A stretch of DNA of 64,000 bases from Eubacteriales bacterium (GCA_048526005.1 DBFVEH010000003.1:64257-128256); one strand, 5' to 3'. Numbered from the stretch's first letter, positions 12,719 to 43,661 are shown. Notes: generated by a model not told the origin, from the letters alone. Made by a program: numbers and translations.

Positions 12719-13417
12719 TTAATCTACAAATTCCGCGACGCATCTTCTGTACGCCGCGACAGGGTCCGTCGCCGCCGTAATCGGACGGCCGACGACGATA
12801 TAATCCGAGCCGAGCGCCTTTGCACCCTCCGGCGTCGTAATGCGAGCCTGATCGCCTGCGTCTCCGCCGGCGAAGCGCACGCCCGGCGTCACGGTAAGGA
12901 ACTTTTCCCCGCAGACGGCATGCACCTTGCCCGCTTCCAGCGGCGAGCAGACCACGCCGTCCAGCCCCGCCCGCTTTGCATTTTCCGCATAGTGCATGAC
13001 GACCTTATCGATCGGCTCCGCGATGAGCAGATCCTCCCGCATGCGCTCCTCACTCGTCGAAGTGAGCTGCGTCACGGCGATGAGGAGCGGGCGCGTCCCG
13101 TCAGGGCGCGTCAGCCCCTCGAGCGCCGCCTCCATCATGGCGACGGTCCCGCCCGCATGAAGATTGCACATATCGACGTCGAGGCGCGAGAGCACCGCCA
13201 TCGCTTTTTTCACCGTATTCGGAATGTCGTGGAGCTTCAAATCGAGGAAGATTTGATGCCCTCTCCTCTTGATTTCGCGGACAATCGACGGTCCCTCCGC
13301 GTAAAAAAGCTCCATGCCGATCTTCACATACGGCTTTTCCTCCCTGAATAAATCAAGAAACGCAAAGGTTTCCGCGGCGCCTGCGAAATCGCAGGCGATG
13401 ATGACGTCCTTTCCCAT
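12719..13417 (-). CDS. pyrF: Orotidine 5'-phosphate decarboxylase
   Basis: 232 aa, FLDLKLHDIPNT motif and C-terminal VVGRPIT. Confidence 0.9.
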   Translation of the reverse strand: MGKDVIIACDFAGAAETFAFLDLFREEKPYVKIGMELFYAEGPSIVREIKRRGHQIFLDLKLHDIPNTVKKAMAVLSRLDVDMCNLHAGGTVAMMEAALEGLTRPDGTRPLLIAVTQLTSTSEERMREDLLIAEPIDKVVMHYAENAKRAGLDGVVCSPLEAGKVHAVCGEKFLTVTPGVRFAGGDAGDQARITTPEGAKALGSDYIVVGRPITAATDPVAAYRRCVAEFVD

Positions 13418-14329
13418 TTAATGCGCACCTCCTATGATATCCGTTAAATTTTCGATTCCGTATTTCTCCATGATCTGAGGCAGGTCGGCTATGATATCGC
13501 GGCAGGCATAGGGATCCACGAGATTCGCGGCGCCCACCTCGACGGCAGCCGCACCCGCGAGCATCATTTCGATCACGTCCTGCGCTGAGGAAACGCCGCC
13601 CATGCCGACGATCGGAATTTTCACCGCCTCATAGACCTGATAGACCATGCGCACCGCCACCGGAAAGACGGCAGGTCCGGAAAAGCCGCCCGTCCCGTTG
13701 GCGAGCACCGGCTTCCGCTTTTTCAAATCGATCCGCATGCCGAGAAGCGTGTTGATAAGGCTGATGCCGTCCGCGCCCGCCGCCTCGCAGGCCTTCGCGA
13801 TGGAGACAATGTCCGTCACATTCGGCGAAAGCTTGATGATGAGCGGCTTTTTCACCGCGCGGCGCACCGCCGCCGTAATGCTTGCCGCGGCTTCGCAGGA
13901 CGTGCCAAAGCTCATACCGCCGCCGTGCACATTCGGGCAGGAGATGTTGACCTCGAGCCATCCGACCTGCGGCATCGCATCCAGCTTTTCGCAGACCTCG
14001 ACATACTCCGTCTCCGAAAAGCCGCTGACGTTCGCCATGACCGGCTTGTGAAAGCACCGCGCAAGGCGCGGCAGCTCCTCCGCGATGACCGCATCCACGC
14101 CCGGATTCTGAAGGCCCACCGCGTTGAGCATCCCTCTCTGACATTCCGCGATGCGCGGCGTGGGATTGCCGAAGCGCGGTTCCCTCGTCGTTCCCTTAAA
14201 GGAAAAGGTGCCGAGACAGTCGATGTCGTAAAGCTCGGCAAATTCATAGCCATAGCCGAACGTCCCGCTCGCGGGGATCACCGGATTGTCGAGCGGTATC
14301 CCGCAAAGGCTCACCCTTGTGCTCACCAT
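13418..14329 (-). CDS. pyrD: Dihydroorotate dehydrogenase B, catalytic subunit
   Basis: 303 aa with class 1B motifs (NPVIPASGTFGYG, EVNISCPN, GGVSSAQD). Overlaps the end of pyrK. Confidence 0.9.
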   Translation of the reverse strand: MVSTRVSLCGIPLDNPVIPASGTFGYGYEFAELYDIDCLGTFSFKGTTREPRFGNPTPRIAECQRGMLNAVGLQNPGVDAVIAEELPRLARCFHKPVMANVSGFSETEYVEVCEKLDAMPQVGWLEVNISCPNVHGGGMSFGTSCEAAASITAAVRRAVKKPLIIKLSPNVTDIVSIAKACEAAGADGISLINTLLGMRIDLKKRKPVLANGTGGFSGPAVFPVAVRMVYQVYEAVKIPIVGMGGVSSAQDVIEMMLAGAAAVEVGAANLVDPYACRDIIADLPQIMEKYGIENLTDIIGGAH

Positions 14330-15054
14330 ATGACCTCCCCCTTTTCCAGCACCGGACCGTCCCTGCAGATCCTCTTATTTCCGTATTTCGTCTTGCAGGA
14401 GCAGCCCATACAGGCGCCGAAGCCGCAGCCCATGCGCTCCTCGAAGCTGAGCTGCCCATCCGAAAGAGAGGCATCCGAGACGGCGCGCAGCATCGGAACC
14501 GGCCCGCAGGCGTAGAAGTACGAATACCGGATCCCCGCCATCGCATCGGTCACAAAGCCGCGGATCCCATAGCTTCCGTCGGCCGTCGCAACGCGCACCT
14601 CCGCGCCCAGCGCACGGAATTTTTCCTCATACAGCACGTCGGCCGCCGAAGCGAAGCCGAGAATCACCGTCGGCATTCTGCCGGCGGCGATAAGCCGCCT
14701 GCAAAGCCCGTACATCGGCGGCGTGCCGACGCCGCCGCCGACAAGCAGCGGCACCTCTCCGGATTTTGTCATATCGAAGCCGTTGCCGAGTCCCGCAAGG
14801 ATATCGAGCGTCGCCCCCGCCGGCATTTCCGCCATTTTCGCGGTGCCCTCGCCCACGACCTTATAAAGGATCGTGAGCGTCTGCGCATCCCAGTCGCAGA
14901 CCGAAATCGGACGGCGGAGAAAAAATCCGTCGAGCTTGATATTGATAAACTGTCCGGGCGTCGTAACGGCGGAAGTGTCGCCCGAGAGCGTCATTTCATA
15001 AACATCCCTCGCAATTTTGACATTGGAGCGGATTTCATAGAGTCCTTGTGTCAT
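14323..15054 (-). CDS. pyrK: Dihydroorotate dehydrogenase B, electron-transfer subunit
   Basis: 243 aa with an FNR-like fold (RRPISV) and a C-terminal 2Fe-2S Cys cluster CGFGACMGCSC...C. Confidence 0.9.
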   Translation of the reverse strand: MTQGLYEIRSNVKIARDVYEMTLSGDTSAVTTPGQFINIKLDGFFLRRPISVCDWDAQTLTILYKVVGEGTAKMAEMPAGATLDILAGLGNGFDMTKSGEVPLLVGGGVGTPPMYGLCRRLIAAGRMPTVILGFASAADVLYEEKFRALGAEVRVATADGSYGIRGFVTDAMAGIRYSYFYACGPVPMLRAVSDASLSDGQLSFEERMGCGFGACMGCSCKTKYGNKRICRDGPVLEKGEVIW

Positions 15055-15063
15055 TTTGCCGCC

Positions 15064-18000
15064 TCATGCGTCGATGATGGAGATGCCGAGCGTCGTCTCC
15101 TCGAGCACGTCGAGCAGCACCTTGACCGTGTCGAGCGCCGTGAACATCGTCACATTGTTTTCCACCGCGCATTGGCGGATTTCATATCCGTCGGAAAGCA
15201 CGCCGGAGGAATTCATATCGCGCGTATTGATGATATAGTTGACGTAGCCTTGGCGGATGGAATCGAGGATTTCCTCGCTGCCCTCGCTGAGCTTGCGCAC
15301 CGCATGGGTGCGCACACCGTGCGCTTTCAGAAATTTTGCCGTCCCCGCCGTCGCCTGAATGTTGAAGCCCATATTGTAGAAGCGGCGGATCAGCGGCAGC
15401 GCCTCCTCCTTGTCCTTGTCCGCAATCGTGCAGAACACCGTGCCGTAGTTCATGACGTTGGTGCCCGAAGCTTGCAGCGCCTTATAAAGCGCGCGCGTCA
15501 GGCTGTTGTCGTAGCCGATCGCCTCTCCGGTCGATTTCATCTCCGGACTGAGGTAGGCGTCAAGCCCGCGCAGTTTGGAAAAGGAGAAAGCCGGAGCCTT
15601 GACATACCAGCGCGTTTTCTCCGGGGGATAAATCGACGTGATGCCCTGCTCGCGCAAGCTTTTTCCGAGAATGACGCGCGTGCCGATATCGGCAAGGCTG
15701 TATCCCGTCGATTTCGAAATGAACGGCACCGTGCGGGACGAGCGCGGATTGACCTCGATGATAAAGACGTTTTCATCCTTATCGACGATAAACTGGATGT
15801 TATAAAGCCCGATGATGCCGATCCCGAGTCCGAGCTTTTTCGTGTAATCGAGAATGGTCTCTTTTACCTTACCGGAGATGCTGAACGACGGATAGACGCT
15901 GATGGAGTCGCCGCTGTGGATGCCCGTGCGCTCGACAAGCTCCATGATGCCGGGCACGAACACGTCCGTGCCGTCGCAGACCGCGTCGACCTCGACCTCC
16001 TTGCCCTGAATGTATTTGTCCACGAGGACCGGCTTGTCCTCGTCGATCTCGACCGCCGTTTTCAGGTAATGGCGCAGTCCCGCCTCGTCCGCGACGATCT
16101 GCATCGCCCGTCCGCCGAGCACGAACGACGGGCGAACCAGCACGGGATAGCCGATCTTCGCGGCGGCGGCGACGCCGTCCTCGATCTTCGTGACAGCCCG
16201 TCCCTCCGGCTGCGGGATATGGAGCGCCTCCAGCACCTTTTCAAAGGCGTCGCGGTTCTCCGCCTTTTCGATGGCGTCGCAGTCGGTGCCGATGATCGTG
16301 ACGCCGCGCTCGCGCAGCGGCTCCGCAAGGTTGATGGCGGTCTGACCGCCGAGCGAGGCGATGACGCCCTCCGGATTTTCAAGGCGAATGATGTTCATCA
16401 CATCCTCGACGCAGAGCGGCTCAAAATAGAGCTTGTCCGAGGTCGTATAGTCCGTCGAGACCGTCTCCGGATTGTTGTTGATGATGATCGCCTCATAGCC
16501 GGACGCCTTGATGGTTTTCACCGCATGAACGGTGGAATAGTCGAATTCCACGCCCTGCCCGATGCGAATGGGACCGGAACCGAGCACGATAATCTTCTTT
16601 TTATCGGAAACGACGGATTCGTTTTCATCCTCATACGTAGAATAAAAATATGGGATATAGCTTTCAAATTCCGATGCGCAGGTGTCGATCATCTTGTAGA
16701 TCGGAAAGATCCCCTCGCGCTCCCGCATATGATAGACGTCGAGCTCCCGGCATCCCCAGAGCTTCGCAATAAATTGATCGGAAAAGCCCATTCTTTTCGC
16801 TTCGCGCAGAAGCCCGACGTCCTGCGGTGCTCCCGAAAGCTCGTTTTCCATCGACACGATGTTTCTCACCTTTTCGAGGAACAGCATGTCGATTTTTGTC
16901 GCATAGCAGATAAGTCCGATATCGACGCCGCGGCGGATCAGCTCCGCAATCGCGCAGATGCGGTCGTCCGTTCCGATTTTGATATATTCCATCAGTTCGT
17001 CCGTTGTCTGCGTGTCGAATTTGCTCATATAAAGGTGACAAATGCCGATTTCCAGCGAACGCACCGCTTTGAGCAGGCTTTCCTCGATCGTGCGTCCGAT
17101 GCTCATGACCTCGCCCGTCGCCTTCATCTGCGTGGAAAGTTTGTTGTTCGCCGCCGCGAATTTGTCGAACGGGAAGCGCGGCATCTTCGTCACCACATAA
17201 TCAAGCGTCGGCTCAAAGGAAGCGGGCGTATTGGCGATGGCGATCTCGTCGAGCGTCATGCCGACCGCAATCTTCGCGGAAACACGCGCAATCGGATATC
17301 CGCTCGCCTTGGAGGCGAGCGCGGAGGAACGCGACACGCGCGGATTGACCTCGATGAGATAATACTGGAAGGAATGAGGGTCGAGTGCGAACTGCACGTT
17401 GCAGCCGCCCTCGATTTTCAGCGCGCGGATGATTTTCAGCGCGCTGTCACGCAGCATGTGATATTCCTTGTTGGTCAGCGTCTGGCTCGGACACACGACG
17501 ATGGAATCGCCCGTATGGATGCCGACGGGATCGACGTTTTCCATATTACAAATGGTGATCGCTGTGTCGTTGGAATCGCGCATGACCTCGTATTCGATCT
17601 CCTTATAGCCCTTGATGCTCTTCTCCACCAGCACCTCGTGTACGGGAGATAGCTTCAAAGCATTTTTGAGCAGCTCCCGGCATTCTGCCTCGTCGTCGGC
17701 AAAGCCGCCGCCCGTGCCGCCGAGCGTAAACGCGGGACGCAGCACGACCGGATATCCGATCTCCGCTGCTGCGGCAAGTCCTTCCTCTATGGTATGCGCG
17801 ATGAGGGACGGCAGCACCGGCTCGCCAAGCTCCTCGCAGAGCTCCTTGAATTTCTCTCTATCCTCGGCGCGCTCGATGCTCTCGCTGCTCGTGCCGAGCA
17901 GCTTGACCTGACATTCGCGCAGCACGCCCTTTTTCTCAAGCTGCATGGCGAGATTGAGCCCCGTCTGTCCGCCGATGCCGGGCACGATCGCATCCGGACG

Positions 18001-28156: not shown

Positions 28157-28243
28157 ATCATACCACATTTTGGGCAAAATTTCAACATGGAAATGAAAAG
28201 ATTTCCTCATTTTTTCCCATGCAGATCAAATGACATAAAAATA

Positions 28244-28276
28244 AAAACGATCCGGCAAATCGCCGGATCGTTTTTT
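28244..28276 (-). terminator. Terminator after the 1405-aa gene
   Basis: Minus strand: AAAAACGATCCGGCG-attt-GCCGGATCGTTTTT followed by ATTTTT. Confidence 0.7.
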
Positions 28277-28285
28277 AATTTAATA

Positions 28286-31200
28286 TCAGTTCAAAGAATC
28301 GAGTGCGTTTTCATACGCTGTCTGTACTTGCTCGGCGGTCAAAGCGGAAGCGTAAATCTTTGCATCCACCATTGTCATATCTTTCGTGGGATAGTCGATC
28401 GGAGTTGTCGAAGTAACCTTTGCCGTTTCCCTGTAATCCGCACCGAGGCAGAACTTATTGAATGCTTCCGCGCCTGCGGGAGCAAAGTCTCCGCTCAGAG
28501 CCTGACCATTGGGATTGACACATTCGCCGTTGATGTAGAGATACTGCTTCCCTGCCGCATAGTCATAGACTGCGACGACATGCACAAGCTCCGTCGTCGA
28601 GGAGGCCGCTGCCGCCGTCGTATTCGCGCTGTCATAAGCGTTCTTCGAGGACGCGGTGATAAAGTACGGCTTGCCGGCATTTTCGGCAATGCCCCAGCCG
28701 CCGCGAAGTCCGGTCGAAGTCGCCTGCTCCGTGCCGCAGACGACACCCTGAACGCCGCCTTTTGTCCCCATGACATAGAACGCCTCAACCGTAAAGCCGT
28801 TTTCCGCCCATTCCTTGACGGCGTCGTCCGTGTCCAGCTTGTTGAACGTGCAAAGCACATATTCGCCGGAATTGCTCACGCGCAGAGCATTCACCGTCGC
28901 CGACTTCGTACCGGCCGTCACAGCCGCCGTGCCGACCGTCGCGCCCTTGTTCTCGATCGTAACATTGCCCTTTGTATCGGTAATCGTCCCATCCGAAAAA
29001 TCGAAATCCACGTATGCCTCCGGAGAGGTCGGCGTAACAGGAGTGCCTTCATCCAAAAGTGCCAACGCTTCTCCGTATGCGTTCTTCACCTGCTCGGCGT
29101 TCAGCGCTCCGGAGTAGATTTTCGCATCTACCATCGTCATATCTGAGGTCGGAAAATCGATCGCAGACGTCGAAGTGGCTTTCGCAATTTCCTTGTAATC
29201 CGCACCGAGGCAGAACTTATTGAATGCTTCCGCGCCTGCGGGAGCAAAGTCTCCGCTCAGAGCCTGACCGTCGGAGTTGACACAGATCCCGTTGATGTAG
29301 AGATACTGCTTCCCTGCCGCATAGTCGTAGACTGCGACGACATGCACAAGCTCCGTCGTCGAGGAGGCCGCCGCTGCCGTCGTATTCGCGCTGTCATAGG
29401 CGTTCTTCGAGGACGCGGTGATAAAGTACGGCTTGCCGGCATTTTCGGCAATGCCCCAGCCGCCGCGAAGTCCGGTCGAAGTCGCCTGCTCCGTTCCGCA
29501 GATAACGCCCTGATAGCCGCCTTTTTTGCCCATCACATAAAAGACTTCCACAGAAAAACCGTTTTCCGCCCATTCCTTGACGGCGTCGCCCGTTTCGAGT
29601 TTATTGAACGTGCAAAGCACATATTCGCCGGAATTGCTCACGCGCAGAGCATTCACCGTCGCCGACTTCGTACCGGCCGTCACAGCCGCTGTGCCGACCG
29701 TCGCACCCTTGTTCTCGATTGTGACATTGCCCTTCGTATCGGTGATTGTTCCGTCCTTGAAATCGAAATCCACGTATACCGTCGGCGCCGTAGGCGTATC
29801 GGGGGTATCCTCATCCAAGATTGCCAACGCATTGGCATATGCGGTCTTCACCTGCTCGCTGTTCAAAGCGGAAGCATAAATCTTCGCGTCCACCATTGTC
29901 ATATCAGAAGAAGGAAACTCAGACGTGAGCGTCGCGGTGATTCTTCCCTCAGTTATATAATCCGCGCCGAGACAGAATTTGTTGAAAGCCTCGTCTCTGC
30001 CGGGATAAAAGCTGCCTTCAATCGCGGTCGAGCCTGCCAAAACGCCGTTGATGTAGATCAGATTCAGCTTGCTTACATAATCATAGACCGCAACGACATG
30101 CACAAGCTCCGTCGTCGAAGAAGCACTCGACGCATAGGCACCCTTGTTATACTTGTTATCGCCATAGCCGGTGATAAAATACGGTGTACCGGTCCTATCC
30201 TCGGCAAGGCCCCAGCCGCCGTATTCCGTTCCGCATACGACACCTTGAATGCTTCCCTTCATGCCCATGACATAGAAAGCCTCGACGGAAAAGCCGTTCT
30301 CCGCCCACGCTTTGACGGTGTCGCCCGTGTCCAGCTTGTTGAACGTGCAAAGCACATATTCGCCGGAATTGCTCACGCGCAGAGCGTTCACCGTCGCCGA
30401 CTTCGTGCCGGCCGTCACAGCCGCCGTGCCGACCGTCGCACCCTTGTTCTCGATCGTGACATTGCCCTTCGCGTCGGTAATCGTTCCATCCTTGAAATCA
30501 AAGTCCACATACGCTTCGGGAAGCTTAGAATCCTCCGGATCGTTGCTGGCCGTTTTGAATTCCTTGGTAAGCGTGTTGCTTTCAGCTCCCCATGAGTCGT
30601 ATGCCGTGAGGGTAACCACGTAGGTACCGCCCTTTGGAAGTGCGGCAAGTTCCTTTTCCCATGTCGTCTTCATATCCGAAAGCTTGCCATGACGGTAAAA
30701 ATCGGAAAGAATGTTATAAGTCGCGAGCACATTTCCGCTCTTCTCCGAGACGACGAGCTGGTAGTGATGCACAAATTCATCGTCCGTACCGGACGCAAAG
30801 CTCACCGACACAGCCTGCGCGGAACCGGAGGTCGCCCCGAGTGTAACGTCAAGCGTGGAAAGCACCGGCGCCGCGTTGTTCTCTTCTCTGCCGCGGTCCT
30901 TGGAATATTTTTCAAGATGAGAACCGTCGGCTTCGGGACGGGCTACCGTCCAATATTCGCCGATGACCTCCTCATGGTAGAAGTCCATGCGCGTGATCCG
31001 CATATTGCCGTCTCCATCGATCTGCACGAGGAGACCCTGCGAGAATTCATCCTTGTCGAGCATCGTGGTATTGCCCGCCATGTCCTCATACTGTCCGGCT
31101 TCGATCGCCATATATCTGACCGAGCCGCAGCCAAGAGAGGTAAATCCGGTCTGCATGATGCTGCGCGGATCGTTCAGCGGGAAATGCAGATGTCCGCTGA

Positions 31201-32503
31201 ACGTCACGGCCTGCGGATATTTGTTCAAAATCTCCGTCAGATCCTTGGTATACCAATAGGTGCCGAGATCGCTGCCGTATACGGTGTCGTAGATCATCGG
31301 ATGCGTGAGGACGAATACGAACTGATCCGGGTTTTCCGCCGTCACCTGCGCGAGCGTCTCGTCGAACCATTTCAGCGCGTCATCGGTAAAGGTGACCGGA
31401 TCCTGAGACGTCGGAAGCATCGTGATCACATGGAAGCCGTTGATCACGCAGTGACGGTTGCCCATACTCGCAAGCGCTTCTGCATCGATATCCGTCAGGA
31501 AATAATTGTCGCCGAGCAGCGCGTCGATATTTTTCGCCTCCGACGCGGAATTCGCCGTCCACCAGCCCTTGACGTCATGATTTCCGGGCGTGTAGATCAT
31601 CGGAACCTCGGTGGGAGAAAATACGCTCTCATAAATGGCCTTGAAATAATTTGTCTGCTCATATTTCCCGCTGTAACCGGTGTCGATGATGTCTCCTACT
31701 GCGAATACGGCATCAAGACCGTCCGCGTCGTCGAGAAGAGCCTGCGCCTTCAGCTGCTGCAATGCGCTCTCAAATTTTTTCGCAACCGCATCCGTCGCGC
31801 TGTTCATAATGTGCATGTCGCTGATCGCGGCAAACGAAAATATGATATTGTCGGAATCAAACTCCTTTTGATTCGACTCGAAATATGTATCCAACAGTTT
31901 TTTAAACTCCTTTTGCATGTTTTCCCTTGCTTCGTCGACAATTTGCTGAATTTTCTCATTCTGCCCGCTGATCGTGGCGTCGACGAAAGCCTCCACCTGC
32001 TCGGCGGTCATATAAGAAGACAGCGCCTGTCTGACAATTTTTGAAATCTCCGCTGCCGACGGAGCATTGTCGAGCCCGCGTACAGCGTTATTCACGATGT
32101 TCCTCACTTGTGCCTCGGTCAGCTGTCCTGCCAAAGCCTCTTCCATGATCGCTTTGACCTGCGCCTCGGTCAATCCCGCGCCGCTCGCATGCTTTTCGGC
32201 ATACTCATCAAGCGCACGGTTCAGCGCTTCCGTCCATGAAGCCTCCTGCTTGGCAAGCTGAGAAGCAAGCTCGTTCTCAAAATCCTCCCAGCTGAGTCCG
32301 CTGCCTGTGCCGCTTAGCTTCGCCGCGATTTCATCAAGCTTTGCTTGAAGTGCCGCCTGATTCTCTTCCCGTTCCCGTTTAGCCGCTTTCATCTCATTGC
32401 CAAGGACAACGAAGCCCGTGATCATTGAGCCGGCCAAAATTGCGATAACAACGATGAAGATGACCAGTTCCGTTACCGTGAAGCCTCTTTTTCTTTGCCT
32501 CAT
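28286..32503 (-). CDS. Prepilin-type N-terminus + helical repeats + metallophosphoesterase + Ig-like spacer + 3 LamG-like modules (1405 aa)
   Basis: MRQRKRG/FTVTELVIFIVVIAILAG (Gly-1, Phe+1, Glu+5). Calcineurin-like motifs SDMHI, VGDIID, PGNHD, LTHP and GHLHFP. Three repeats of about 245 aa starting (P)xxYVDFDF(K/S)DGTITD. Confidence 0.85.
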   Translation of the reverse strand: MRQRKRGFTVTELVIFIVVIAILAGSMITGFVVLGNEMKAAKREREENQAALQAKLDEIAAKLSGTGSGLSWEDFENELASQLAKQEASWTEALNRALDEYAEKHASGAGLTEAQVKAIMEEALAGQLTEAQVRNIVNNAVRGLDNAPSAAEISKIVRQALSSYMTAEQVEAFVDATISGQNEKIQQIVDEARENMQKEFKKLLDTYFESNQKEFDSDNIIFSFAAISDMHIMNSATDAVAKKFESALQQLKAQALLDDADGLDAVFAVGDIIDTGYSGKYEQTNYFKAIYESVFSPTEVPMIYTPGNHDVKGWWTANSASEAKNIDALLGDNYFLTDIDAEALASMGNRHCVINGFHVITMLPTSQDPVTFTDDALKWFDETLAQVTAENPDQFVFVLTHPMIYDTVYGSDLGTYWYTKDLTEILNKYPQAVTFSGHLHFPLNDPRSIMQTGFTSLGCGSVRYMAIEAGQYEDMAGNTTMLDKDEFSQGLLVQIDGDGNMRITRMDFYHEEVIGEYWTVARPEADGSHLEKYSKDRGREENNAAPVLSTLDVTLGATSGSAQAVSVSFASGTDDEFVHHYQLVVSEKSGNVLATYNILSDFYRHGKLSDMKTTWEKELAALPKGGTYVVTLTAYDSWGAESNTLTKEFKTASNDPEDSKLPEAYVDFDFKDGTITDAKGNVTIENKGATVGTAAVTAGTKSATVNALRVSNSGEYVLCTFNKLDTGDTVKAWAENGFSVEAFYVMGMKGSIQGVVCGTEYGGWGLAEDRTGTPYFITGYGDNKYNKGAYASSASSTTELVHVVAVYDYVSKLNLIYINGVLAGSTAIEGSFYPGRDEAFNKFCLGADYITEGRITATLTSEFPSSDMTMVDAKIYASALNSEQVKTAYANALAILDEDTPDTPTAPTVYVDFDFKDGTITDTKGNVTIENKGATVGTAAVTAGTKSATVNALRVSNSGEYVLCTFNKLETGDAVKEWAENGFSVEVFYVMGKKGGYQGVICGTEQATSTGLRGGWGIAENAGKPYFITASSKNAYDSANTTAAAASSTTELVHVVAVYDYAAGKQYLYINGICVNSDGQALSGDFAPAGAEAFNKFCLGADYKEIAKATSTSAIDFPTSDMTMVDAKIYSGALNAEQVKNAYGEALALLDEGTPVTPTSPEAYVDFDFSDGTITDTKGNVTIENKGATVGTAAVTAGTKSATVNALRVSNSGEYVLCTFNKLDTDDAVKEWAENGFTVEAFYVMGTKGGVQGVVCGTEQATSTGLRGGWGIAENAGKPYFITASSKNAYDSANTTAAAASSTTELVHVVAVYDYAAGKQYLYINGECVNPNGQALSGDFAPAGAEAFNKFCLGADYRETAKVTSTTPIDYPTKDMTMVDAKIYASALTAEQVQTAYENALDSLN
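28289..30520 (-). repeat. Three tandem LamG-coding repeats inside the 1405-aa gene (about 28289-29023, 29024-29799, 29800-30520)
   Basis: Off-frame ORFs from the three units are near-identical (for example MT(A/V)S(S/P)VSSLLNVQSTYSPELLTRRAFTVADFVPAVTAAVPTVAPLFSIVTLPF at 28815, 29577 and 30312). Units 2 and 3 are near-identical over several hundred bp. Confidence 0.85.
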
Positions 32504-32525
32504 TGTTCATTCTCCTTTTCGTCTC

Positions 32526-32562
32526 GCGGAAGCGCGGAACCCATAAATGCCCGCGCCTCCGC
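32526..32562 (-). promoter_or_regulatory. 5'-UTR stem-loop upstream of the 1405-aa gene
   Basis: Minus-strand RNA: GCGGAGGCGCGG-13 nt-CCGCGCTTCCGC, a 12-bp stem. The single non-Watson-Crick position is G-U on the minus strand and A-C on the plus strand. It lies about 20 nt upstream of the AAAGGAG RBS. Confidence 0.4.
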
Positions 32563-32627: not shown

Positions 32628-34877
32628 TCAATTCAAGCGATCGATCGCATCCTCATATGCGGTCCTTACCTGACCGCCCGTGAGCGCCGACGCATAGATC
32701 TTCGCGTCGACCATCGTCATATCGGAGCAGGCGAAGTCTCCGCCCACGCCTGTTTTCTTGATGTCGTTTCCGATACAGAACTTATTGAAGGCCTCCGACA
32801 GTCCGGTGCAATACTCGCCCGAAATGGCTTTGGTGTCGTTCAGAACGCCGTTTATATAGATTTTCTCCTGCTTGTTCTTATAATCATACACCGCCACAAC
32901 ATGAACGAGCTCCGTCGTTGAGGAAGCTTCCTTGGCGTATGCTCCCGCGTTATACTTGTTTCCTGCGATACCGGTGATGAAGTACGGCTTTCCCGTAACA
33001 TCCTCGGCAATGCCCCAGCCGCCGGACTCCGTGCCGCATACAACACCTTGTATGCTGCCCTTCTGGCCCATCACATAGAAAGCTTCTATGGAAAATCCGT
33101 TTTCCGCCCAGTTCTTCATGGCCGTTTCTGTTTTCAGCTTATCAAAGGTGCAAAGCACATACTCTCCGGAAGCCGCAACGCGCAGAGCGGTGACGCTCGC
33201 CGTTTTCGCGCCCGCCGTCACCGTAGCCGTGCCGACCGTCGCGCCCATGTTTTGAATCTTGACATTTCCCTTGGTGTCCACGATCGTTCCGTTCGAGAAG
33301 TCGATATCCGCATAAGCCTCAGGAAGATCCTCTTTTTCCGTGAGAGCCGCGCTTCCCGTCTTAAATTCCTTGATGAGCTGCGCGCTCCCAGCTCCCCATG
33401 AGTCATAGGCGACAAGCGCGACTACATAGGAGGTATCCGTATCCAGTATGCCGAGATCCTTCTCCCAAGTTTTCTTCATATCCGCCGTATTCGCATGACG
33501 GTAGAAATCGGACAGGATCCGATAGCTCTTCAAGATCGAGCTGTCCGTCGAATCGCCCTTCCAAATTGAAAGCTCATAATGATGCACAAATTCATCGTCC
33601 GCGCCGGACGCAAAGCTCACGGATACCGCCTGCGAGGAGCCGGAAATCTCGCCGAGCGTCACATCAAGCGTCGACAGCGTCGGCGCCGCGTTGTTCTCAT
33701 CATCGCCGCGGTCCCATGCGTATTTCGTCAGATGAGAGCCATCCGAGACGGGATAGGAAACCGTCCAGTCCTCGCCGATAATCTCGTCATTGTAAAAGTC
33801 CATGCGCGTAATCCGCATATTGCCGTTCTTATCGATCTGCACGAGAAGTCCCTGCGAGTATTCCTCCTTGTCAAGCATGGTCGTAGCACTTGCCATGTCC
33901 TCATAGCCGCCGGCTTCGATCGCCATATATCTGACCGAACCGCAGCCCAGAGAGGTAAATGCCGTCTGCATGATGCTGCGCGGATCGTTCAGCGGGAAAT
34001 GCAGATGTCCGCCGAAAGTCACGACTTGATTGTATTTCGAGAGAATATCCGTGAGATCCTTCGTATACCACATATCTGTGATGCCCGGATAGAGATCGGG
34101 ACCGAGGTCGCTGCCGTACACGGTGTTGTAGATCATCGGATGCGTGAGGACAATCACAAACTGATTCGGATTTTCTTTTGTGATCTCGGCGAGCGTTTCA
34201 TCCAGCCACTCCTTTGTGGCGTTCGTATAGGTCACAGGATTGGAGCTGACCGGCAGAAGCGTGATCACATGGAAGCCGTTCACGACACAGTGGCGGTTGC
34301 CCTCGTCGGCAAGCGCGTCTTTGTCGATATCGGTAAGGAAATAATCCTCGCCGAGGATATCGTTGAGATACTCGGCCGAGAAAACAGAGCTTCCCGTCCA
34401 TGCAACGTCGTGGTTGCCGGGCACGAAGATCATCGGCGTTTCCGTCGGAGAAAATGCCTTCTCATAGATGGCCTTGTAATTCTCCATCTGGCTGTATTTG
34501 CCGCCGTAGCCGCCCGAATCGATCAAGTCTCCCACGGCAAACACCGCATCAAGACCGTCCTCGTCGTCGATCAGCGCCTGCTTTTTGAGCTGGGCAAATG
34601 CGTTTTCCAGTTTTTTGGCAGCCGTATCCGTCGTGCTGTTCGCGATATGCATATCGCTGATCGCGGCAAAGGAAAACACAATGCTGTCGGAATCAAACGT
34701 TTTTGGAAGATCCGGATCCGTGTAGCTCGGAGAAGTCGTCCCCGGGTCCTCGGAGCCCGCCGTCGTTTCCGACGGCTTCTCCGAAGACGTTGTCGTATCA
34801 TTATCCTTGGTGGTACCGCAGGCGGCAATGCCCGTCAGCATGCCGGCCGCGAGAAGGAACGCAAGGAATTTTTTCAT
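32628..34877 (-). CDS. Lipoprotein: metallophosphoesterase + Ig-like spacer + one LamG-like module (749 aa), paralogue of 28286-32503
   Basis: Lipobox GIAAC. The same five phosphoesterase motifs (SDMHI, VGDLID, PGNHD, LTHP, GHLHFP). One C-terminal LamG unit of the short subtype. Confidence 0.85.
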   Translation of the reverse strand: MKKFLAFLLAAGMLTGIAACGTTKDNDTTTSSEKPSETTAGSEDPGTTSPSYTDPDLPKTFDSDSIVFSFAAISDMHIANSTTDTAAKKLENAFAQLKKQALIDDEDGLDAVFAVGDLIDSGGYGGKYSQMENYKAIYEKAFSPTETPMIFVPGNHDVAWTGSSVFSAEYLNDILGEDYFLTDIDKDALADEGNRHCVVNGFHVITLLPVSSNPVTYTNATKEWLDETLAEITKENPNQFVIVLTHPMIYNTVYGSDLGPDLYPGITDMWYTKDLTDILSKYNQVVTFGGHLHFPLNDPRSIMQTAFTSLGCGSVRYMAIEAGGYEDMASATTMLDKEEYSQGLLVQIDKNGNMRITRMDFYNDEIIGEDWTVSYPVSDGSHLTKYAWDRGDDENNAAPTLSTLDVTLGEISGSSQAVSVSFASGADDEFVHHYELSIWKGDSTDSSILKSYRILSDFYRHANTADMKKTWEKDLGILDTDTSYVVALVAYDSWGAGSAQLIKEFKTGSAALTEKEDLPEAYADIDFSNGTIVDTKGNVKIQNMGATVGTATVTAGAKTASVTALRVAASGEYVLCTFDKLKTETAMKNWAENGFSIEAFYVMGQKGSIQGVVCGTESGGWGIAEDVTGKPYFITGIAGNKYNAGAYAKEASSTTELVHVVAVYDYKNKQEKIYINGVLNDTKAISGEYCTGLSEAFNKFCIGNDIKKTGVGGDFACSDMTMVDAKIYASALTGGQVRTAYEDAIDRLN

Positions 34878-34999: not shown

Positions 35000-35974
35000 T
35001 CAGTCCAAAAGCGCAAGCGCATTCTCATACGCGGCCTTCACCTGCTCGGCGCTCAGCACCGAGGAATAGATTTTCGCATCCACCATCGTCATATCGGGAG
35101 TCGGAAAATCGATCGGCGTCGTCTCGGTGACCTTTGCCGTTTCCCTGTAATCCGAGCCGAGACAGAATTTATTGAACGCTTCCGCACCGGCCGGCGCAAA
35201 TTCTCCGCTGATCGTCTCACCCGCCGAATTGACGCAGACGCCGTTCACATAAAGATACTGCTTTTTCGCCGCATAATCGTAAACCGCAACGACATGCACA
35301 AGCTCCGTCTCCGAGGAGGCCGACTCTGCGGTCGTGTTCGCGCTGATATAAGCATTTCCCGATGTCGCGGTGATAAAGTACGGCTTGCCGGCATTTTCGG
35401 CAAGTCCCCAGCCGCCGCGCAGCTTTGTCGAGTTCACTTGCTCCGTTCCGCAGACGATTCCCTGAACGCCCTTCTTCTCACCCATCACATAGAAGGCTTC
35501 CACGGCAAAACCGCCTTCCGCCCATTCCTTGACGGCGGCGTCCGTTCCCATCTCACCGAATGTACAAAGCACATAGCTGCCGGATTCATCGATGCGCAGA
35601 GCGTCCAAGCTCGCGGACTTCCCGCCGGCCGTCACCGTCGCCTCAACGACCGTCGCGCCCCGATTTTCGATCGTGACATGCCCCTTTGCATCGGTGATCG
35701 TTCCATTTCGGAAATCAAAGTCGACATAAGCCTCCGGCAGCTCGACAATCACGGGGGGATCCGGTTCTTTTGTCGATTCCTCAGGGTTTGTCGTCTCCGG
35801 CGTCGATTCCTCGGGCTCCGGCCCCTCCGGTGTCGATTCCTCCGGCTCCGACGCCTCCGGCGTTGATTCCGCCGGTGTCGATTCCGTCGGCGTTGACTGA
35901 GCAGGTTCATTTCCGCATGAAGCAACTGCAAAAACAAACATGGCAGCCAAAATCAATGCAATCAGTTTTTTCAT
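35000..35974 (-). CDS. Lipoprotein: Ser/Thr/Pro/Glu-rich linker + one LamG-like module (324 aa)
   Basis: Lipobox AVASC, a STPE-type low-complexity linker, and a LamG unit of the long subtype (GTEQVNSTKLRGGWG...). Confidence 0.8.
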   Translation of the reverse strand: MKKLIALILAAMFVFAVASCGNEPAQSTPTESTPAESTPEASEPEESTPEGPEPEESTPETTNPEESTKEPDPPVIVELPEAYVDFDFRNGTITDAKGHVTIENRGATVVEATVTAGGKSASLDALRIDESGSYVLCTFGEMGTDAAVKEWAEGGFAVEAFYVMGEKKGVQGIVCGTEQVNSTKLRGGWGLAENAGKPYFITATSGNAYISANTTAESASSETELVHVVAVYDYAAKKQYLYVNGVCVNSAGETISGEFAPAGAEAFNKFCLGSDYRETAKVTETTPIDFPTPDMTMVDAKIYSSVLSAEQVKAAYENALALLD

Positions 35975-36020: not shown

Positions 36021-36049
36021 ATTATATATGTAGATAAATTTTTTGTCAA
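36021..36049 (-). promoter_or_regulatory. Consensus SigA promoter of the 324-aa LamG lipoprotein gene
   Basis: Minus strand: TTGACA (36049-36044), 17 bp, TATAAT (36026-36021), with a very AT-rich upstream region. Confidence 0.55.
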
Positions 36050-40475: not shown

Positions 40476-40579
40476 GGGTGTCAAGACACCCAAAAAGAAA
40501 ACGAGATACCAAGGCGGTACCTCGTTTTTTTGGTGATCCATCGGAGAGTCGAACTCCGGACACCATGATTAAAAGTCAT
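40476..40579. repeat. Left 104-bp direct repeat (att-like) of the tRNA-Lys islet
   Basis: Matches 42134-42237 at a constant offset of 1658 bp with 3 mismatches. Contains the tRNA 3' part plus the downstream hairpins. Confidence 0.9.
40531..40579 (-). pseudogene. Orphan 3' fragment of tRNA-Lys (nt 28-76: anticodon-stem 3' portion, T-arm, acceptor 3' strand, CCA)
   Basis: Identical to the 3' 49 nt of the intact tRNA at 42189-42264. The 5' half is absent. Confidence 0.85.
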
Positions 40580-40599
40580 AAATACAGCTAAATCCACGG

Positions 40600-40628
40600 T
40601 TGACAAGCTCAAAAAGACATGCTATACT
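40600..40628 (+). promoter_or_regulatory. Promoter of cassette A small-peptide mRNA
   Basis: TTGACA (40600-40605), 17 bp, TGc-TATACT (40620-40628). Confidence 0.55.
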
Positions 40629-40686
40629 TTTGTCAGAATATGGTGAAAAAGGCGGTTAGCCAATCCACTGAAAGGTGGTGAGGCAT

Positions 40687-40755
40687 ATGGACTATATAAT
40701 TCTGCTATTGATACTTATAGTATTTTACGCAATTATAAAAGACATAAAAAAATAA
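40687..40755 (+). CDS. 22-aa hydrophobic peptide, type I toxin candidate (cassette A)
   Basis: MDYIILLLILIVFYAIIKDIKK: one TM helix plus a Lys-rich tail. The SD GGTGGTGAGG is partly sequestered by CCAC-tgaaa-GGTGG. Confidence 0.45.
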   Translation: MDYIILLLILIVFYAIIKDIKK

Positions 40756-40787
40756 CCGCCCAAGGCCAATGGTTGCGGTTATTTTTT
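40746..40787. terminator. Bidirectional terminator shared by the convergent RNAs of cassette A
   Basis: AAAAAAATAACCGC-15 nt-GCGGTTATTTTTT. Confidence 0.6.
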
Positions 40788-40835
40788 ATAACTAAAAACT
40801 TCGGCTAACCGCTTTTAACGGTTTCACCATATTCT
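40746..40835 (-). ncRNA. Putative antisense RNA of about 90 nt (antitoxin candidate, cassette A)
   Basis: Bounded by the minus-strand promoter at 40842-40870 and the bidirectional terminator. Overlaps the 3' end of the peptide mRNA. Confidence 0.35.
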
Positions 40836-40841
40836 ATTTTT

Positions 40842-40870
40842 ATTTTACACGAAGGAAATCGATTTGTCAA
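40842..40870 (-). promoter_or_regulatory. Convergent promoter of cassette A
   Basis: Minus strand: TTGACA (40870-40865), 17 bp, TGt-TAAAAT (40847-40842). Confidence 0.5.
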
Positions 40871-40890
40871 TACCTTATTTTCATTTATAA

Positions 40891-40919
40891 TTGACAAGTT
40901 TAAAAAGACATGCTATACT
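40891..40919 (+). promoter_or_regulatory. Promoter of cassette B small-peptide mRNA
   Basis: TTGACA (40891-40896), 17 bp, TGc-TATACT (40911-40919). 59 of 61 nt are identical to the cassette A promoter plus leader. Confidence 0.55.
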
Positions 40920-40978
40920 TTTGTCAGAATATGGTGAAAAAGGCGGTTAGCACTTCCTGAATAAGGAGGTGATGCGCG

Positions 40979-41065
40979 GTGATTACATACACAGAGTTTT
41001 TTACTTTTTGTTTGCTTATCATTGCTCTTATCAGTCTTATTGTAGACTTGATAAGAAAGAAGTAA
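40979..41065 (+). CDS. 28-aa hydrophobic peptide, holin-like type I toxin candidate (cassette B)
   Basis: GTG start 9 nt after AAGGAGG. (M)ITYTEFFTFCLLIIALISLIVDLIRKK resembles the M-x-TY...hydrophobic...KK pattern of small holin-like toxins of Firmicutes. The SD is fully paired by CACTTCCT (40951-40958). Confidence 0.5.
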   Translation: MITYTEFFTFCLLIIALISLIVDLIRKK

Positions 41066-41143
41066 CCGCCCCACGGTACGGGACGGTTACGATATAAAAT
41101 AGCTGATTCCGGCTAACCGCTTTTAACGGTTTCACCATATTCT
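41060..41143 (-). ncRNA. Putative antisense RNA (antitoxin candidate, cassette B)
   Basis: Runs from the minus-strand promoter at 41150-41178 to the hairpin GTAACCG...CGGTTAC (41062-41090), which is followed by a T-rich tract on the minus strand. Confidence 0.3.
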
Positions 41144-41149
41144 ATCTTT

Positions 41150-41178
41150 ATTTTACACGAGAGAAATCGATTTGTCAA
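41150..41178 (-). promoter_or_regulatory. Convergent promoter of cassette B
   Basis: Minus strand: TTGACA (41178-41173), 17 bp, TGt-TAAAAT (41155-41150). Confidence 0.5.
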
Positions 41179-41183
41179 TACCT

Positions 41184-41249
41184 ATGTCATACAATTTTCG
41201 TGATGCAGCGTTCCGATCGGATCCGCAGCGTGGAAAAATTGTATGACAT
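41184..41249 (+). terminator. Long stem-loop with a T-run between cassette B and the DUF2726 gene
   Basis: ATGTCATACAATTTT / AAAATTGTATGACAT, a 15-bp stem with a 36-nt loop, followed by TTTTTATTT on the plus strand. Confidence 0.45.
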
Positions 41250-41251
41250 TT

Positions 41252-41749
41252 TTATTTCAATAGCTTTTGAATAAGCTCGTCAAGATTTGCTTCACCATAT
41301 GTATGCGCAATCTTATAGCCGCATTTTTTCAAAACCTTATCGACGAAATCATCCCGTTCGGCACGTTCGGCGCTGTGATGGGTGCTGTCCTCTAATTCCA
41401 AGATAAATTTGACTGCCAAATTATCCGGATTGCAAAGTACGAAATCGACGTGCTTTGCTTTTATTTTTGCGAAATATTTCTCAAAAGCCATTCCGGTGAA
41501 ATAAGGATCCACTTGCACAAGATCGGCAAGGCGTACCTTTGCCAAAATATGCAGATTAAATTTATCTGCCGATTCTTTCAGTCGTTTATAAAATGCCCAT
41601 TCTGTTTTTGTCAATAAAAATTTTGATTTATAAGGCAGAATCTCATCTTTTTTGGGTTCTGGCGTTTCCGGTTCGGACGGCTTTTCTTTGACAATCTCAT
41701 GATCAACCTGTTCTTTATAGAGTGAATCGCAGCATCCAAACAGTCCCAT
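41252..41749 (-). CDS. DUF2726 (NERD/restriction-endonuclease-like fold) protein
   Basis: 165 aa, low GC. The pattern LLTKTEWAFYKRL...ILAKVRLADLV...HVDFVLC...ILELEDSTH...RDDFV matches DUF2726 as I recall it. Confidence 0.6.
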   Translation of the reverse strand: MGLFGCCDSLYKEQVDHEIVKEKPSEPETPEPKKDEILPYKSKFLLTKTEWAFYKRLKESADKFNLHILAKVRLADLVQVDPYFTGMAFEKYFAKIKAKHVDFVLCNPDNLAVKFILELEDSTHHSAERAERDDFVDKVLKKCGYKIAHTYGEANLDELIQKLLK

Positions 41750-41972
41750 TTTAAGTGTCCTCCGAAACTTATGAAATTTCTATATTTTTCCCTTTTTTGA
41801 TAGTATACACAAATTTGTGATATATTTCAAGATTAAAATACAAAATTTTCTATTTTTCCATGCAAGTTTCGCAAAGCATCAACAAACGTTTCAAACATGC
41901 GCTAATTTTTACAAATGTATAAAATCTGTTTTTTGCCCCTAAAATATATTATATAATCTAATATTACCCAAA

Positions 41973-42119
41973 CAGAATATTTACACCTTGCAGACGATCC
42001 TTGGGCATACGTCCCTTGAAATGGTGAAAAAATATCTGCATATCGCTCCCGGATATGTGATTGCAAACTTCGGAAAATACTCTCCTATCGACGTCAGAAA
42101 CGGACACCATGATTCTTGA
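41973..42119 (+). pseudogene. C-terminal remnant of a tyrosine recombinase (integrase)
   Basis: QNIYTLQTILGHTSLEMVKKYLHIAPGYV...* carries the LGH-x-S-x-x-M-x-x-x-Y-x-H catalytic-Tyr box, but no upstream integrase body is present. Confidence 0.6.
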
Positions 42120-42133
42120 TATCCTCAAAAAAT

Positions 42134-42237
42134 GGGTGTCAAGACACCCAAAACAAAAACGAGATACCAAGGCGGTATCTCGTTTTTTTGGTGATCCATC
42201 GGAGAGTCGAACTCCGGACACCATGATTAAAAGTCAT
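42134..42237. repeat. Right 104-bp direct repeat (att-like), overlapping the intact tRNA-Lys
   Basis: See 40476-40579. This copy keeps a perfect terminator stem (ACGAGATACC/GGTATCTCGT). Confidence 0.9.
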
Positions 42238-42264
42238 GTGCTCTACCTTCTGAGCTAATGGATC
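42189..42264 (-). tRNA. tRNA-Lys (anticodon UUU), CCA encoded
   Basis: GATCCAT-TA-GCTC-AGAAGGTA-GAGC-A-CATGA-CTTTTAA-TCATG-GTGTC-CGGAG-TTCGACT-CTCCG-ATGGATC-A-CCA folds as a canonical 76-nt cloverleaf. Confidence 0.9.
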
Positions 42265-42482
42265 ATTTTCAAAGCTTATCTAATATATCATATTTCACAT
42301 CATTTGTCAATATATTTTTAACAAATTTTATAAAAATATCCTGTGGATTAGTCTTTCCCGCCCCTATATTTTTATGCAAAAATTTTAACAAACGCTTAAA
42401 TTTCGATTCTCTCTTGAAAACTTTCGGCTCAGGGTATATACTGATCATAAGATCAATTTTAAGTGGCAAAGAGGAGACATTT

Positions 42483-43661
42483 ATGAAATTTCTTCACTCC
42501 TGCGGAGATCTCGATTTGTATGAAATCCTATCCGTCGCGGATTTAAAGCGGTTTATCTCCTTTCCCGATCGTCTTTATATAGGGAATCCGAATTATGTTC
42601 CGTCTCTTATGATGGACGAAATGGAAAATCTCAGAAAAGATAAAAATCCCGCGTTTGAATATTGCAGCGCACGCTATTTTATGGCGTTTCGCGGCAAAGA
42701 GCCAGTCGGAAGGGTCGCTGCGATCCACAATCGGCGCTTTAACGAGATCTGGAACAAAAGCTGCGTTCGTTTTTCCCGATATGACGTCATCGACGATATC
42801 GAGGTATCGCGTGCGCTCCTTGCAGAAGTGGAAGCTTATGCAAAAACGCTCGGCATGACCGAAGTGCAGGGACCGATGGGCTTCTGTGACCTCGATCATC
42901 AGGGACTGCTCGTCGACGGCTTCGACAAAAAGGGACTTTTTATCACCACCTACAACCATCCGTATTACATGGAGCATTTGGAAGCGCTCGGCTATGCAAA
43001 GCTCACGGATTGGGTGGAAATGATCATGGAAAAGCCCGAAACGCTCGATCCGCGAATCAAAAGGATCGCGGATTACTCCCTTGAAAAGCTGAATCTGCAC
43101 GAGGTTCATTTGAAAAAGACAAAAGAAATCCTGCCATATGCAAAAGACCTTTTTGATCTACTTTATGAGGCTTACAAAAATATCTACGGCGTCATTCCGC
43201 TGGACGACAAGCAGGTGGAGCTTTACATCGGACAGTTCATCACGCTCGTCAAGCCGGAATTTCTCACGCTGATCGTCGATGAAAACAACATTCCCGTGTC
43301 CTTCGGCGTCGTCATCCCCTCCCTTGCGGACACGGTGCGCAGCTGCAAGGGACGCCTCTTCCCTTTCGGCTGGGTCCATCTGCTGCGGTATTTTACCGCG
43401 AAAAAGCATGAGACGCTGGAATTTCTGCTGATCGCCACGCATCCGAAATACTGGAACAGCGCGCTGAATGCCGAGATCATCGTACATACCTTTGAGGGCG
43501 CCGAAAAATTCGGCATCAAGTATGCGGAAACAGGTCCCATGCTTGAAACCAATCTGCGCATCCAATCCATGTGGAGCAGATTCCATGCGGAAATCCACAA
43601 AAGACGCCGCTGTTATGTAAAGCCGGTCGGAGAAAAGCAGGAGGCGGGATCCGGCACATGA
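42483..43661 (+). CDS. GNAT-like acyltransferase-fold protein, function unknown
   Basis: ATG at 42483 after AGAGGAG, 392 aa. The family call is tentative, based on size and pattern as recalled. The 5' 75 codons of the ORF were rejected because they are AT-rich and overlap the tRNA. Confidence 0.4.
   Translation: MKFLHSCGDLDLYEILSVADLKRFISFPDRLYIGNPNYVPSLMMDEMENLRKDKNPAFEYCSARYFMAFRGKEPVGRVAAIHNRRFNEIWNKSCVRFSRYDVIDDIEVSRALLAEVEAYAKTLGMTEVQGPMGFCDLDHQGLLVDGFDKKGLFITTYNHPYYMEHLEALGYAKLTDWVEMIMEKPETLDPRIKRIADYSLEKLNLHEVHLKKTKEILPYAKDLFDLLYEAYKNIYGVIPLDDKQVELYIGQFITLVKPEFLTLIVDENNIPVSFGVVIPSLADTVRSCKGRLFPFGWVHLLRYFTAKKHETLEFLLIATHPKYWNSALNAEIIVHTFEGAEKFGIKYAETGPMLETNLRIQSMWSRFHAEIHKRRRCYVKPVGEKQEAGSGT

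Follow-up and report, generated by a model that had tools for sequence, protein, structure and literature searches.

Introduction

Modular pilins, in which a pilin carries one or more extra modules, are thought to explain many of the functions of simple filaments, and those described so far are adhesins in which the pilin fold is complete. More than 1200 such proteins, with 264 architectures, have been catalogued (PMC8179133). The commonest architecture, IPR012902-PF13385, adds LamG and accounts for 229 proteins (9 with two LamG modules), and enzyme cargos, namely peptidases, are also predicted (PMC8179133). Two modular pilins of Streptococcus sanguinis are PilC, a pilin with a ConA-like lectin, and PilB, a pilin with a vWA module (PMC8179133; PMC9934059). 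Here, we describe a gene of a gut bacterium of the Clostridia (Eubacteriales bacterium) whose product joins a pilin-type N-terminus to a metallophosphoesterase, an FN3-like domain and three LamG modules. It lies in a stretch of 64,000 nucleotides (nt) (GCA_048526005.1 DBFVEH010000003.1:64257-128256; hereafter the window, with positions counted from its first letter), where an open reading frame (ORF) of 1405 amino acids (aa), read from the window sequence, occupies 28286..32503 on the minus strand (stop codon at 28286-28288).

Like PilB and PilC, this protein combines a class III (type IV pilin) signal with modules that are not specific to pili, the extra module of PilC belongs to the same ConA/LamG superfamily as its LamG modules, and S. 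sanguinis and the host of our gene are both monoderm. In PilB and PilC, the small pilin fold is complete and leads by a short loop to the module, whereas our protein has a helical stalk of ~180 aa and no pilin head. PilB and PilC are encoded in the pil locus, whereas our gene has lipoprotein paralogs as neighbors and lies far from pil genes, and its cargo comprises an enzyme, FN3 and three LamG modules (~1190 aa). Set beside the modular type IV pilin of Raynaud et al. (2021), the protein has extra modules (Metallophos, FN3 and three Laminin_G_3), but the complete pilin module with a short loop is missing from its low-confidence predicted structure, and linkage to pil or com genes was found neither in the window nor within 10 kb at the other loci examined. 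Dataset S1 of the modular-pilin survey, which lists the 264 architectures, has no metallophosphoesterase entry (IPR004843, IPR029052, PF00149) and no stalk in place of the pilin head (PMC8179133). A first-pass annotation of the sequence had judged an enzyme plus a triple lectin cargo of this size to be well outside what is described. This judgment is not supported, LamG on a pilin being already the commonest combination, although the metallophosphoesterase cargo and the stalk that replaces the head are both absent from that list.

Stalked class III proteins of gut Clostridia (e.g., P0135, P0143, P0173 and P0131, the last named 'type II secretion system GspH family protein, partial [Eubacterium sp.]' by NCBI) share the N-terminal module of our protein, that is, a leader ending in G/FTxxE, the alpha1N helix, a W(E/S)DFE motif and LTEAQVKxIV repeats. 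Our protein differs from them in its diverged signal, its phosphoesterase and LamG cargo and its lack of a pilin partner. The Sulfolobus bindosome offers an archaeal parallel, in which a prepilin-type signal is likewise found on large, non-pilin, substrate-handling surface proteins. That system needs PibD and the Bas assembly system, and we know of no helical stalk of this kind in it. New here are a pilin alpha1 helix followed by a helical stalk without a globular head, reused across many proteins of gut Clostridia, an enzyme cargo drawn from a phosphoesterase family linked to glycan-utilization loci, and a visible interchange of anchor types in one small clade. The locus thus offers a tractable case for asking whether class III signals in monoderms are general display tags that are independent of filaments.

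A pilin-like N-terminal module shared with a family of stalked proteins

The protein begins MRQRKRG/FTVTELVIFIVVIAILAGSMITGFVVL, with Gly at -1, Phe at +1, Thr at +2 and Glu at +5 relative to a predicted prepilin-peptidase cut. The basic leader MRQRKRG (aa 1-7; 32483..32503, minus strand) would be removed by cleavage after Gly7, leaving a hydrophobic alpha1N-like helix (aa 8-34; 32402..32482, minus strand). All the elements of a class III signal are therefore present, namely a basic leader running to Gly, Phe+1, Glu+5 and ~20 hydrophobic residues (MRQRKRG/FTVTE followed by LVIFIVVIAILAGSMITGFVVL), and this is the only class III-like motif in the six frames of the 64-kb window. Hidden Markov model (HMM) scores, however, were borderline. 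With PF07963 (N_methyl; gathering score, 21.2), the whole protein scored 18.2 bits and its first 63 residues scored 22.1 bits, and TIGR02532 gave 15.7 bits against a cut-off of 16.3. Other NCBIfam matches were weak and far under their cut-offs (TafC, 26.9 bits versus 410; anti-phage DS9 phosphoesterase, 20.7 versus 420; GspH, 23 versus 80).

Where HMM scores are borderline, homology to canonical class III proteins decides, and on this ground we count the N-terminus as pilin-derived. Residues 1-214 are 36-47% identical, over ~80% of the query, to proteins with textbook class III signals (KKG/FTLVELVIVIAVIAILAG), and these homologues share the helical region after the signal, including a W(L/F)xWEDFE motif and GLTEAQVKxIV repeats. 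A chance resemblance to a pilin signal was rejected on the ground of this homology along all 214 residues. Gly7, the -1 residue, is unchanged in all nine orthologs (9/9). Because the N_methyl scores of our protein fall below thresholds, motif-based surveys of modular pilins would miss it, and it flags a set of proteins that lie just under threshold and are overlooked in this way.

After the alpha1N-like helix comes the stalk (aa 35-214, ~180 aa; 31862..32401, minus strand), which runs from a charged helix through a SWEDFE motif to four or five LTEAQV(K/R)xIV repeats. An AlphaFold2 (AF2) model of aa 1-230, built from a nine-sequence alignment, was all-helical and without a beta strand at low confidence (predicted local distance difference test (pLDDT) of 41). 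Alignment with the homologues and matches of HTH_SUN2 to the repeats in the wider family also point to a helical stalk.

We defined this family by a search with residues 1-214 alone (P0123-P0134 were aligned) followed by a profile search of 1.84 billion cluster representatives. The best 150 profile matches included more than 70 stalked proteins with class III signals, ranging in length from 200 to 1438 aa. Conservation of the signal was extreme across 81 motif-bearing representatives, in which position -1 is Gly (74/81) or Ala (7/81), and Phe+1 (80/81), Thr+2 (81/81), Glu+5 (80/81) and Ala+11 (80/81) hardly vary, while Pro+22 occurs in 40/81. Pfam matched N_methyl in 60 of the 65 members of at least 400 aa, with a top score of 34 bits, and HTH_SUN2 matched the LTEAQV-type repeats in 31 of these 65. 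Canonical members score well over threshold (N_methyl, 34-38 bits; TIGR02532, 27-30 bits); others, such as P0140, P0164 and P0232, have decayed signals. The alpha1N of our protein is off the family consensus at positions 4, 9, 11, 19, 22 and 23. The cargos are diverse and include GLUG repeats, Big_2, beta-helix, pectate-lyase-like, hyaluronate-lyase-like and GDSL lipase modules. Family members share a conserved stalk sequence, as would fit a structural role. No NCBIfam model covers the stalk, and we found no description of the family in the literature. A profile search with the module in a 90%-clustered database returned for the most part generic pilins that are short, along with truncated pieces from tiny contigs; long genes of this family assemble poorly.

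Stalk-family genes often lie directly upstream of a gene for a small (154-218 aa) classical pilin. The pair recurs, with the small pilin within a few bases and carrying a nearly identical signal, at L047 (9908-12397), L052 (9905-12255), L054 (9731-12975; also L056) and L059 (9905-12270), and is reminiscent of PilA-PilC, a minor-pilin complex in S. sanguinis. At L031 (1114-11679), five consecutive N_methyl genes encode proteins of 768 aa, 1312 aa, 579 aa (Big_2, hyaluronate-lyase-like), 452 aa (Big_2 plus GDSL lipase) and 137 aa; large pilin-like proteins with cargo are clustered at this locus, and one of them bears a further enzyme. On one contig of a sister species, ~100 kb separates an ortholog of our gene from the genes of a canonical stalk protein and its small pilin, which suggests that a prepilin peptidase and filament machinery are present in the lineage.

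At L047, the stalk/small-pilin pair adjoins genes for a gp3-like small terminase, a large terminase and a P22-like portal (12921-16381), with rqcH (NFACT) on the opposite side. ORFs matched in size and position to these phage genes occur at L058 (14585-16358), and a pooled scan gave two members each of the gp3 and terminase families. The pair at L047 may thus mark a prophage border or be prophage cargo there. A phage origin of the family as a whole was not adopted, since two loci adjoin terminase and portal genes but other loci (e.g., L054) have no phage genes.

No genes for an assembly ATPase, platform protein or prepilin peptidase were found within 10 kb of any family member examined. Pfam searches of 128 neighbor ORFs at nine loci gave no assembly genes among the 25 listed of 119 matched families, and a scan for the Walker A motif of assembly ATPases and the GxGD motif of the peptidase across 61 loci and the window gave only three spurious matches. 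No pilus or Com assembly genes were found in the 64-kb window either, by Pfam on ~45 ORFs or by motif scan.

A phosphoesterase with three LamG modules as cargo

The calcineurin-like metallophosphoesterase spans ~aa 215-545 (30869..31861, minus strand). Pfam matched Metallophos at aa 223-441 (49.4 bits versus a threshold of 21.5, E = 1e-12), and the five metal motifs (SDMHI at 228, VGDIID at 269, PGNHD at 306, LTHP at 399 and GHLHFP at 437) fall on invariant columns of a 51-sequence alignment. AF2 modeled aa 215-650 with a pLDDT of 95.6. In Foldseek searches, the N-terminal part of this model matched GpdQ, Rv0805 and purple acid phosphatases (E = 1e-12 to 1e-11), which have the same fold and the same five metal motifs at 13-17% identity, and the C-terminal part, an FN3-like beta-sandwich (~aa 546-650; 30554..30868, minus strand), matched FN3 domains. 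The family to which our phosphoesterase belongs differs from these enzymes in having its own C-terminal FN3 and in lying among glycan-utilization genes. Sequence searches of the PDB gave nothing significant for the whole protein, for a profile of the phosphoesterase core or for a profile of the LamG module.

The remainder of the protein consists of three LamG/ConA-like modules, matched by Laminin_G_3 (PF13385) in three stretches (107.5 bits, E = 9e-31) and visible in the DNA sequence as repeats whose periods are 762 and 735 nt. Module 1 (aa 662-907; 29783..30520, minus strand) is nearest to the LamG of the gene at 32628-34877, while modules 2 (aa 908-1160; 29024..29782, minus strand) and 3 (aa 1161-1405; 28289..29023, minus strand) are nearest to the LamG of the gene at 35000-35974. 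The number of LamG copies differs among close relatives, with three in the window and in L004 (1405-1406 aa) and two in P0003, L001 and L060 (1160 aa); the difference could be a recent tandem duplication, a loss or an assembly collapse of the repeat.

These results bear out most of the architecture proposed in the first-pass annotation, which had described a class III signal, helical (L)TEAQV-type repeats where a small pilin head would be expected (in our low-confidence model, without a beta strand), a calcineurin-like phosphoesterase with five metal motifs, an Ig/FN3-like spacer, three LamG modules of ~245 aa and a window free of pilus and Com genes. The N_methyl check that it proposed gave scores at threshold.

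The phosphoesterase-FN3 core is ~50% identical across Clostridia and Bacteroidales, where it is fused to LamG, BACON, DUF4988 coiled coils, esterases and GH95-like domains. A Bacteroidales homologue lies in a locus (L035, 2362-23168) with SusC/SusD, DUF4959/DUF5126/DUF5000, DUF4998, BACON and GLUG proteins, a second phosphoesterase, an alpha-L-fucosidase and a SASA (sialate O-acetylesterase-like) gene, and near one Clostridia ortholog lie genes for a fucosidase and an acetyl-esterase. From the fucosidase and sialate esterase genes that accompany the Bacteroidales homologue in its SusC/SusD locus, we infer a glycan substrate. On this view, our protein would act at the cell surface, removing or cutting phosphoester groups of a complex glycan, and its LamG modules would serve in binding. 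We found no description of the substrate of this phosphoesterase family in the literature.

Lipoprotein paralogs and the exchange of anchors

Our gene is the last of three genes on the same strand. The first, paralog A (35000..35974, minus strand), encodes a 324-aa protein with a lipoprotein signal (VASC), a Ser/Thr/Pro/Glu-rich linker and one LamG. The second, paralog B (32628..34877, minus strand), encodes a 749-aa protein with a lipoprotein signal (IAAC), a metallophosphoesterase, FN3 and one LamG, and its phosphoesterase-FN3 core is 71% identical to that of our protein. DNA repeat comparison counted five LamG copies across the three genes. Since the paralogs are lipoproteins and our protein has a pilin-type N-terminus, two different anchors in one operon show the same cargo. 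Most other homologues of the phosphoesterase are also lipoproteins, and the operon holds these two lipoprotein paralogs in place of a gene for a small pilin partner.

The class III motif itself has been lost close by. In P0005 and P0006 (TG/QTRVS) and in P0007 and P0008 (NG/SFWAK), Phe+1 and Glu+5 are gone and N_methyl gives no score. The cores of these four proteins are 79-87% identical to that of P0004, which still has the motif, and all four still have the transmembrane helix and the stalk. Genomic loci matching these motif-less sister clades are L005 and L006. As read from these sequences, one small clade shows an interchange of three predicted anchors (i.e., lipoprotein, class III signal and plain signal-anchor).

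A probable tether and its alternatives

We hypothesize that the protein is a wall-spanning, membrane-tethered, glycan-directed surface metallophosphoesterase whose anchor and stalk were recruited from the pilin-like family in place of a lipoprotein anchor, and we put this account as a whole at even chances. In such a mechanism, the class III-type signal would enter the membrane with its N-terminus inside, and a prepilin peptidase would probably trim the 7-residue leader after Gly7 while the hydrophobic alpha1-like helix stays in the membrane. The ~180-residue helical stalk, up to ~25 nm if fully extended, would act as a spacer through the Gram-positive wall. Outside, the LamG modules would hold the glycan substrate next to the phosphoesterase and FN3, and the GpdQ/purple-acid-phosphatase-like enzyme would cut the phosphoester. 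The pilin-like module would have been taken from the stalked family, replacing the lipoprotein anchor and linker still used by the operon paralogs, and the end state in this phosphoesterase lineage would be a membrane-tethered enzyme for which incorporation into a filament is not required. The pilin-derived front end thus probably works mainly as a membrane tether. This is supported by the close sister clades that lost Phe+1 and Glu+5 yet keep the helix and stalk, by the same-operon paralogs and most homologues, which put the cargo on lipoprotein anchors, and by the absence of assembly genes from the window and near the related loci examined.

Several observations pull the other way. Conservation of alpha1N in the parent family (F1, T2, E5 and A11 in 80 or 81 of 81 representatives) goes far beyond what a plain anchor needs, and genes of this family often have a small classical pilin gene as their partner. 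Phe+1 and Glu+5 are held in the clade of our protein through 20% divergence of the module (P0002) and also in a second clade (L007 and P0160, RGG/FTLTE), which suggests continued selection on a pilin-specific feature. The structural case is qualified too, since the stalk model is of low confidence and all-helical pilin heads exist, as in ComGC (PMC7212644). Finally, a lack of Glu5 is natural in the subunits at the tip of minor-pilin complexes (PMC10191384), so the loss of Glu5 in the sister clades is compatible with a location at the tip.

These points bear most on a possible, if doubtful, alternative, in which the protein is a genuine type IV pilin of the modular kind, a minor or tip subunit that is cleaved, N-methylated and extracted by its alpha1 helix through the filament machinery, and that carries its 150-kDa cargo on the tip of a pilus or of a short pseudopilus. 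Its Gly-1, Phe+1 and Glu+5 are those of a class III signal, the homologous family conserves alpha1N and has Pro22 in half of its members, and the genes of that family pair with small classical pilins (L047, L052, L054/L056 and L059) or cluster with other N_methyl genes (L031). In addition, a sister species at 91-92% DNA identity has the canonical pair on the contig of the ortholog, suggesting machinery in the lineage, and PilB and PilC of S. sanguinis provide a precedent (PMC8179133). Against a tip pilin stand the lack of a globular pilin module in the low-confidence, all-helical stalk model, the two lipoprotein paralogs where a small pilin partner would be expected, the loss of the motif in close sister clades, the departures of alpha1N from the family consensus and the failure to find assembly genes within 10 kb at any locus examined. 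Of the two functions raised in the first-pass annotation, the prepilin signal as an anchor or display device is thus the one we favor, while the pilus-tip reading is weakened for this lineage by the lost motif, the lipoprotein paralogs and the lack of assembly genes nearby.

A broader form of the filament hypothesis, which we consider rather unlikely, is that the stalked proteins and the small pilin together make up a type IV-filament-dependent system that pushes enzymes and adhesins through the Gram-positive wall, with our protein as a pilus- or pseudopilus-displayed enzyme. If true, bacteria would have in it an equivalent of the archaeal bindosome.

It is improbable that the motif is a relic and that the N-terminus is an ordinary uncleaved signal-anchor (type II topology) ignored by prepilin peptidase. 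HMM scores at or below the curated thresholds (18.2 versus 21.2; 15.7 versus 16.3), sister clades that work without the motif and the NCBI label of an ortholog, just 'metallophosphoesterase', are consistent with a relic. However, Gly-1 is the main determinant of cleavage by prepilin peptidases, and it is unchanged in the nine orthologs. Phe+1, Thr+2 and Glu+5 are held in P0002 although neighboring positions changed, and a charged Glu within a membrane helix is costly unless put to use. Release of the protein as an exoenzyme, with the class III signal serving for export only and shedding via a type II-secretion-like piston or proteolysis of the stalk, is highly improbable, for although the long stalk shows little order in the model and gut bacteria release glycan-processing enzymes, the paralogs and most homologues are lipid-anchored rather than secreted, secretion genes were not found nearby, and the conserved stalk sequence fits a structural role.

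Expression signals and genomic surroundings

A promoter-like site, TTGACA and TATAAT separated by 17 nt, lies 5' of paralog A (36021..36049, minus strand). It agrees at 12/12 consensus positions and, on this consensus match only, is the probable start of a three-gene transcription unit. An intrinsic-terminator-like hairpin with a 15-bp stem and a T run (28243..28275, minus strand) directly follows the stop codon of our gene, at the end of the unit. The ribosome-binding site of our gene, AGGAG (32512..32516, minus strand), was read directly in the sequence 8 nt 5' of the ATG. Just 5' of it, within the 124-nt gap after paralog B, is a GC-rich inverted repeat without a T run (GCGGAGGCGCGG...CCGCGCTTCCGC; 32525-32561, minus strand), which may serve in the processing or stability of the RNA.

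Elsewhere, the window is an unremarkable stretch of Clostridia chromosome that includes the pyr operon, ATP-binding cassette (ABC) transporters, a GH94 phosphorylase, a G5-M23 peptidase, SRP54 and the sporulation gene yunB. Synteny is full in related assemblies at 91-92% DNA identity, these being metagenome-assembled genomes of uncultured Clostridiales/Eubacteriales (GCA_902495635.1 and CAKSDZ01) and contig ERZ1673741 NODE-31. A stretch of ~1.5 kb (40579-42134) is missing from three sister-species loci (L001, L004 and L060) and has a GC content of 0.40 versus ~0.53. It holds a DUF2726 gene (41252-41749, minus strand) and adjoins a tRNA-Lys gene (42189-42264), and looks like a small insertion at a tRNA gene. 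Two ORFs gave no Pfam match at E <= 0.001, one of 853 aa (6705-9266, minus strand) and one of 467 aa (42258-43661, plus strand); the former overlaps the start of the adjacent solute-binding-protein ORF, and its true start may be further downstream. Within the pyr operon, a 362-aa ORF (10941-12029, minus strand) contains both the catalytic chain of aspartate carbamoyltransferase and a C-terminal PyrI_C metal-binding domain, and looks like a PyrB-PyrI fusion.

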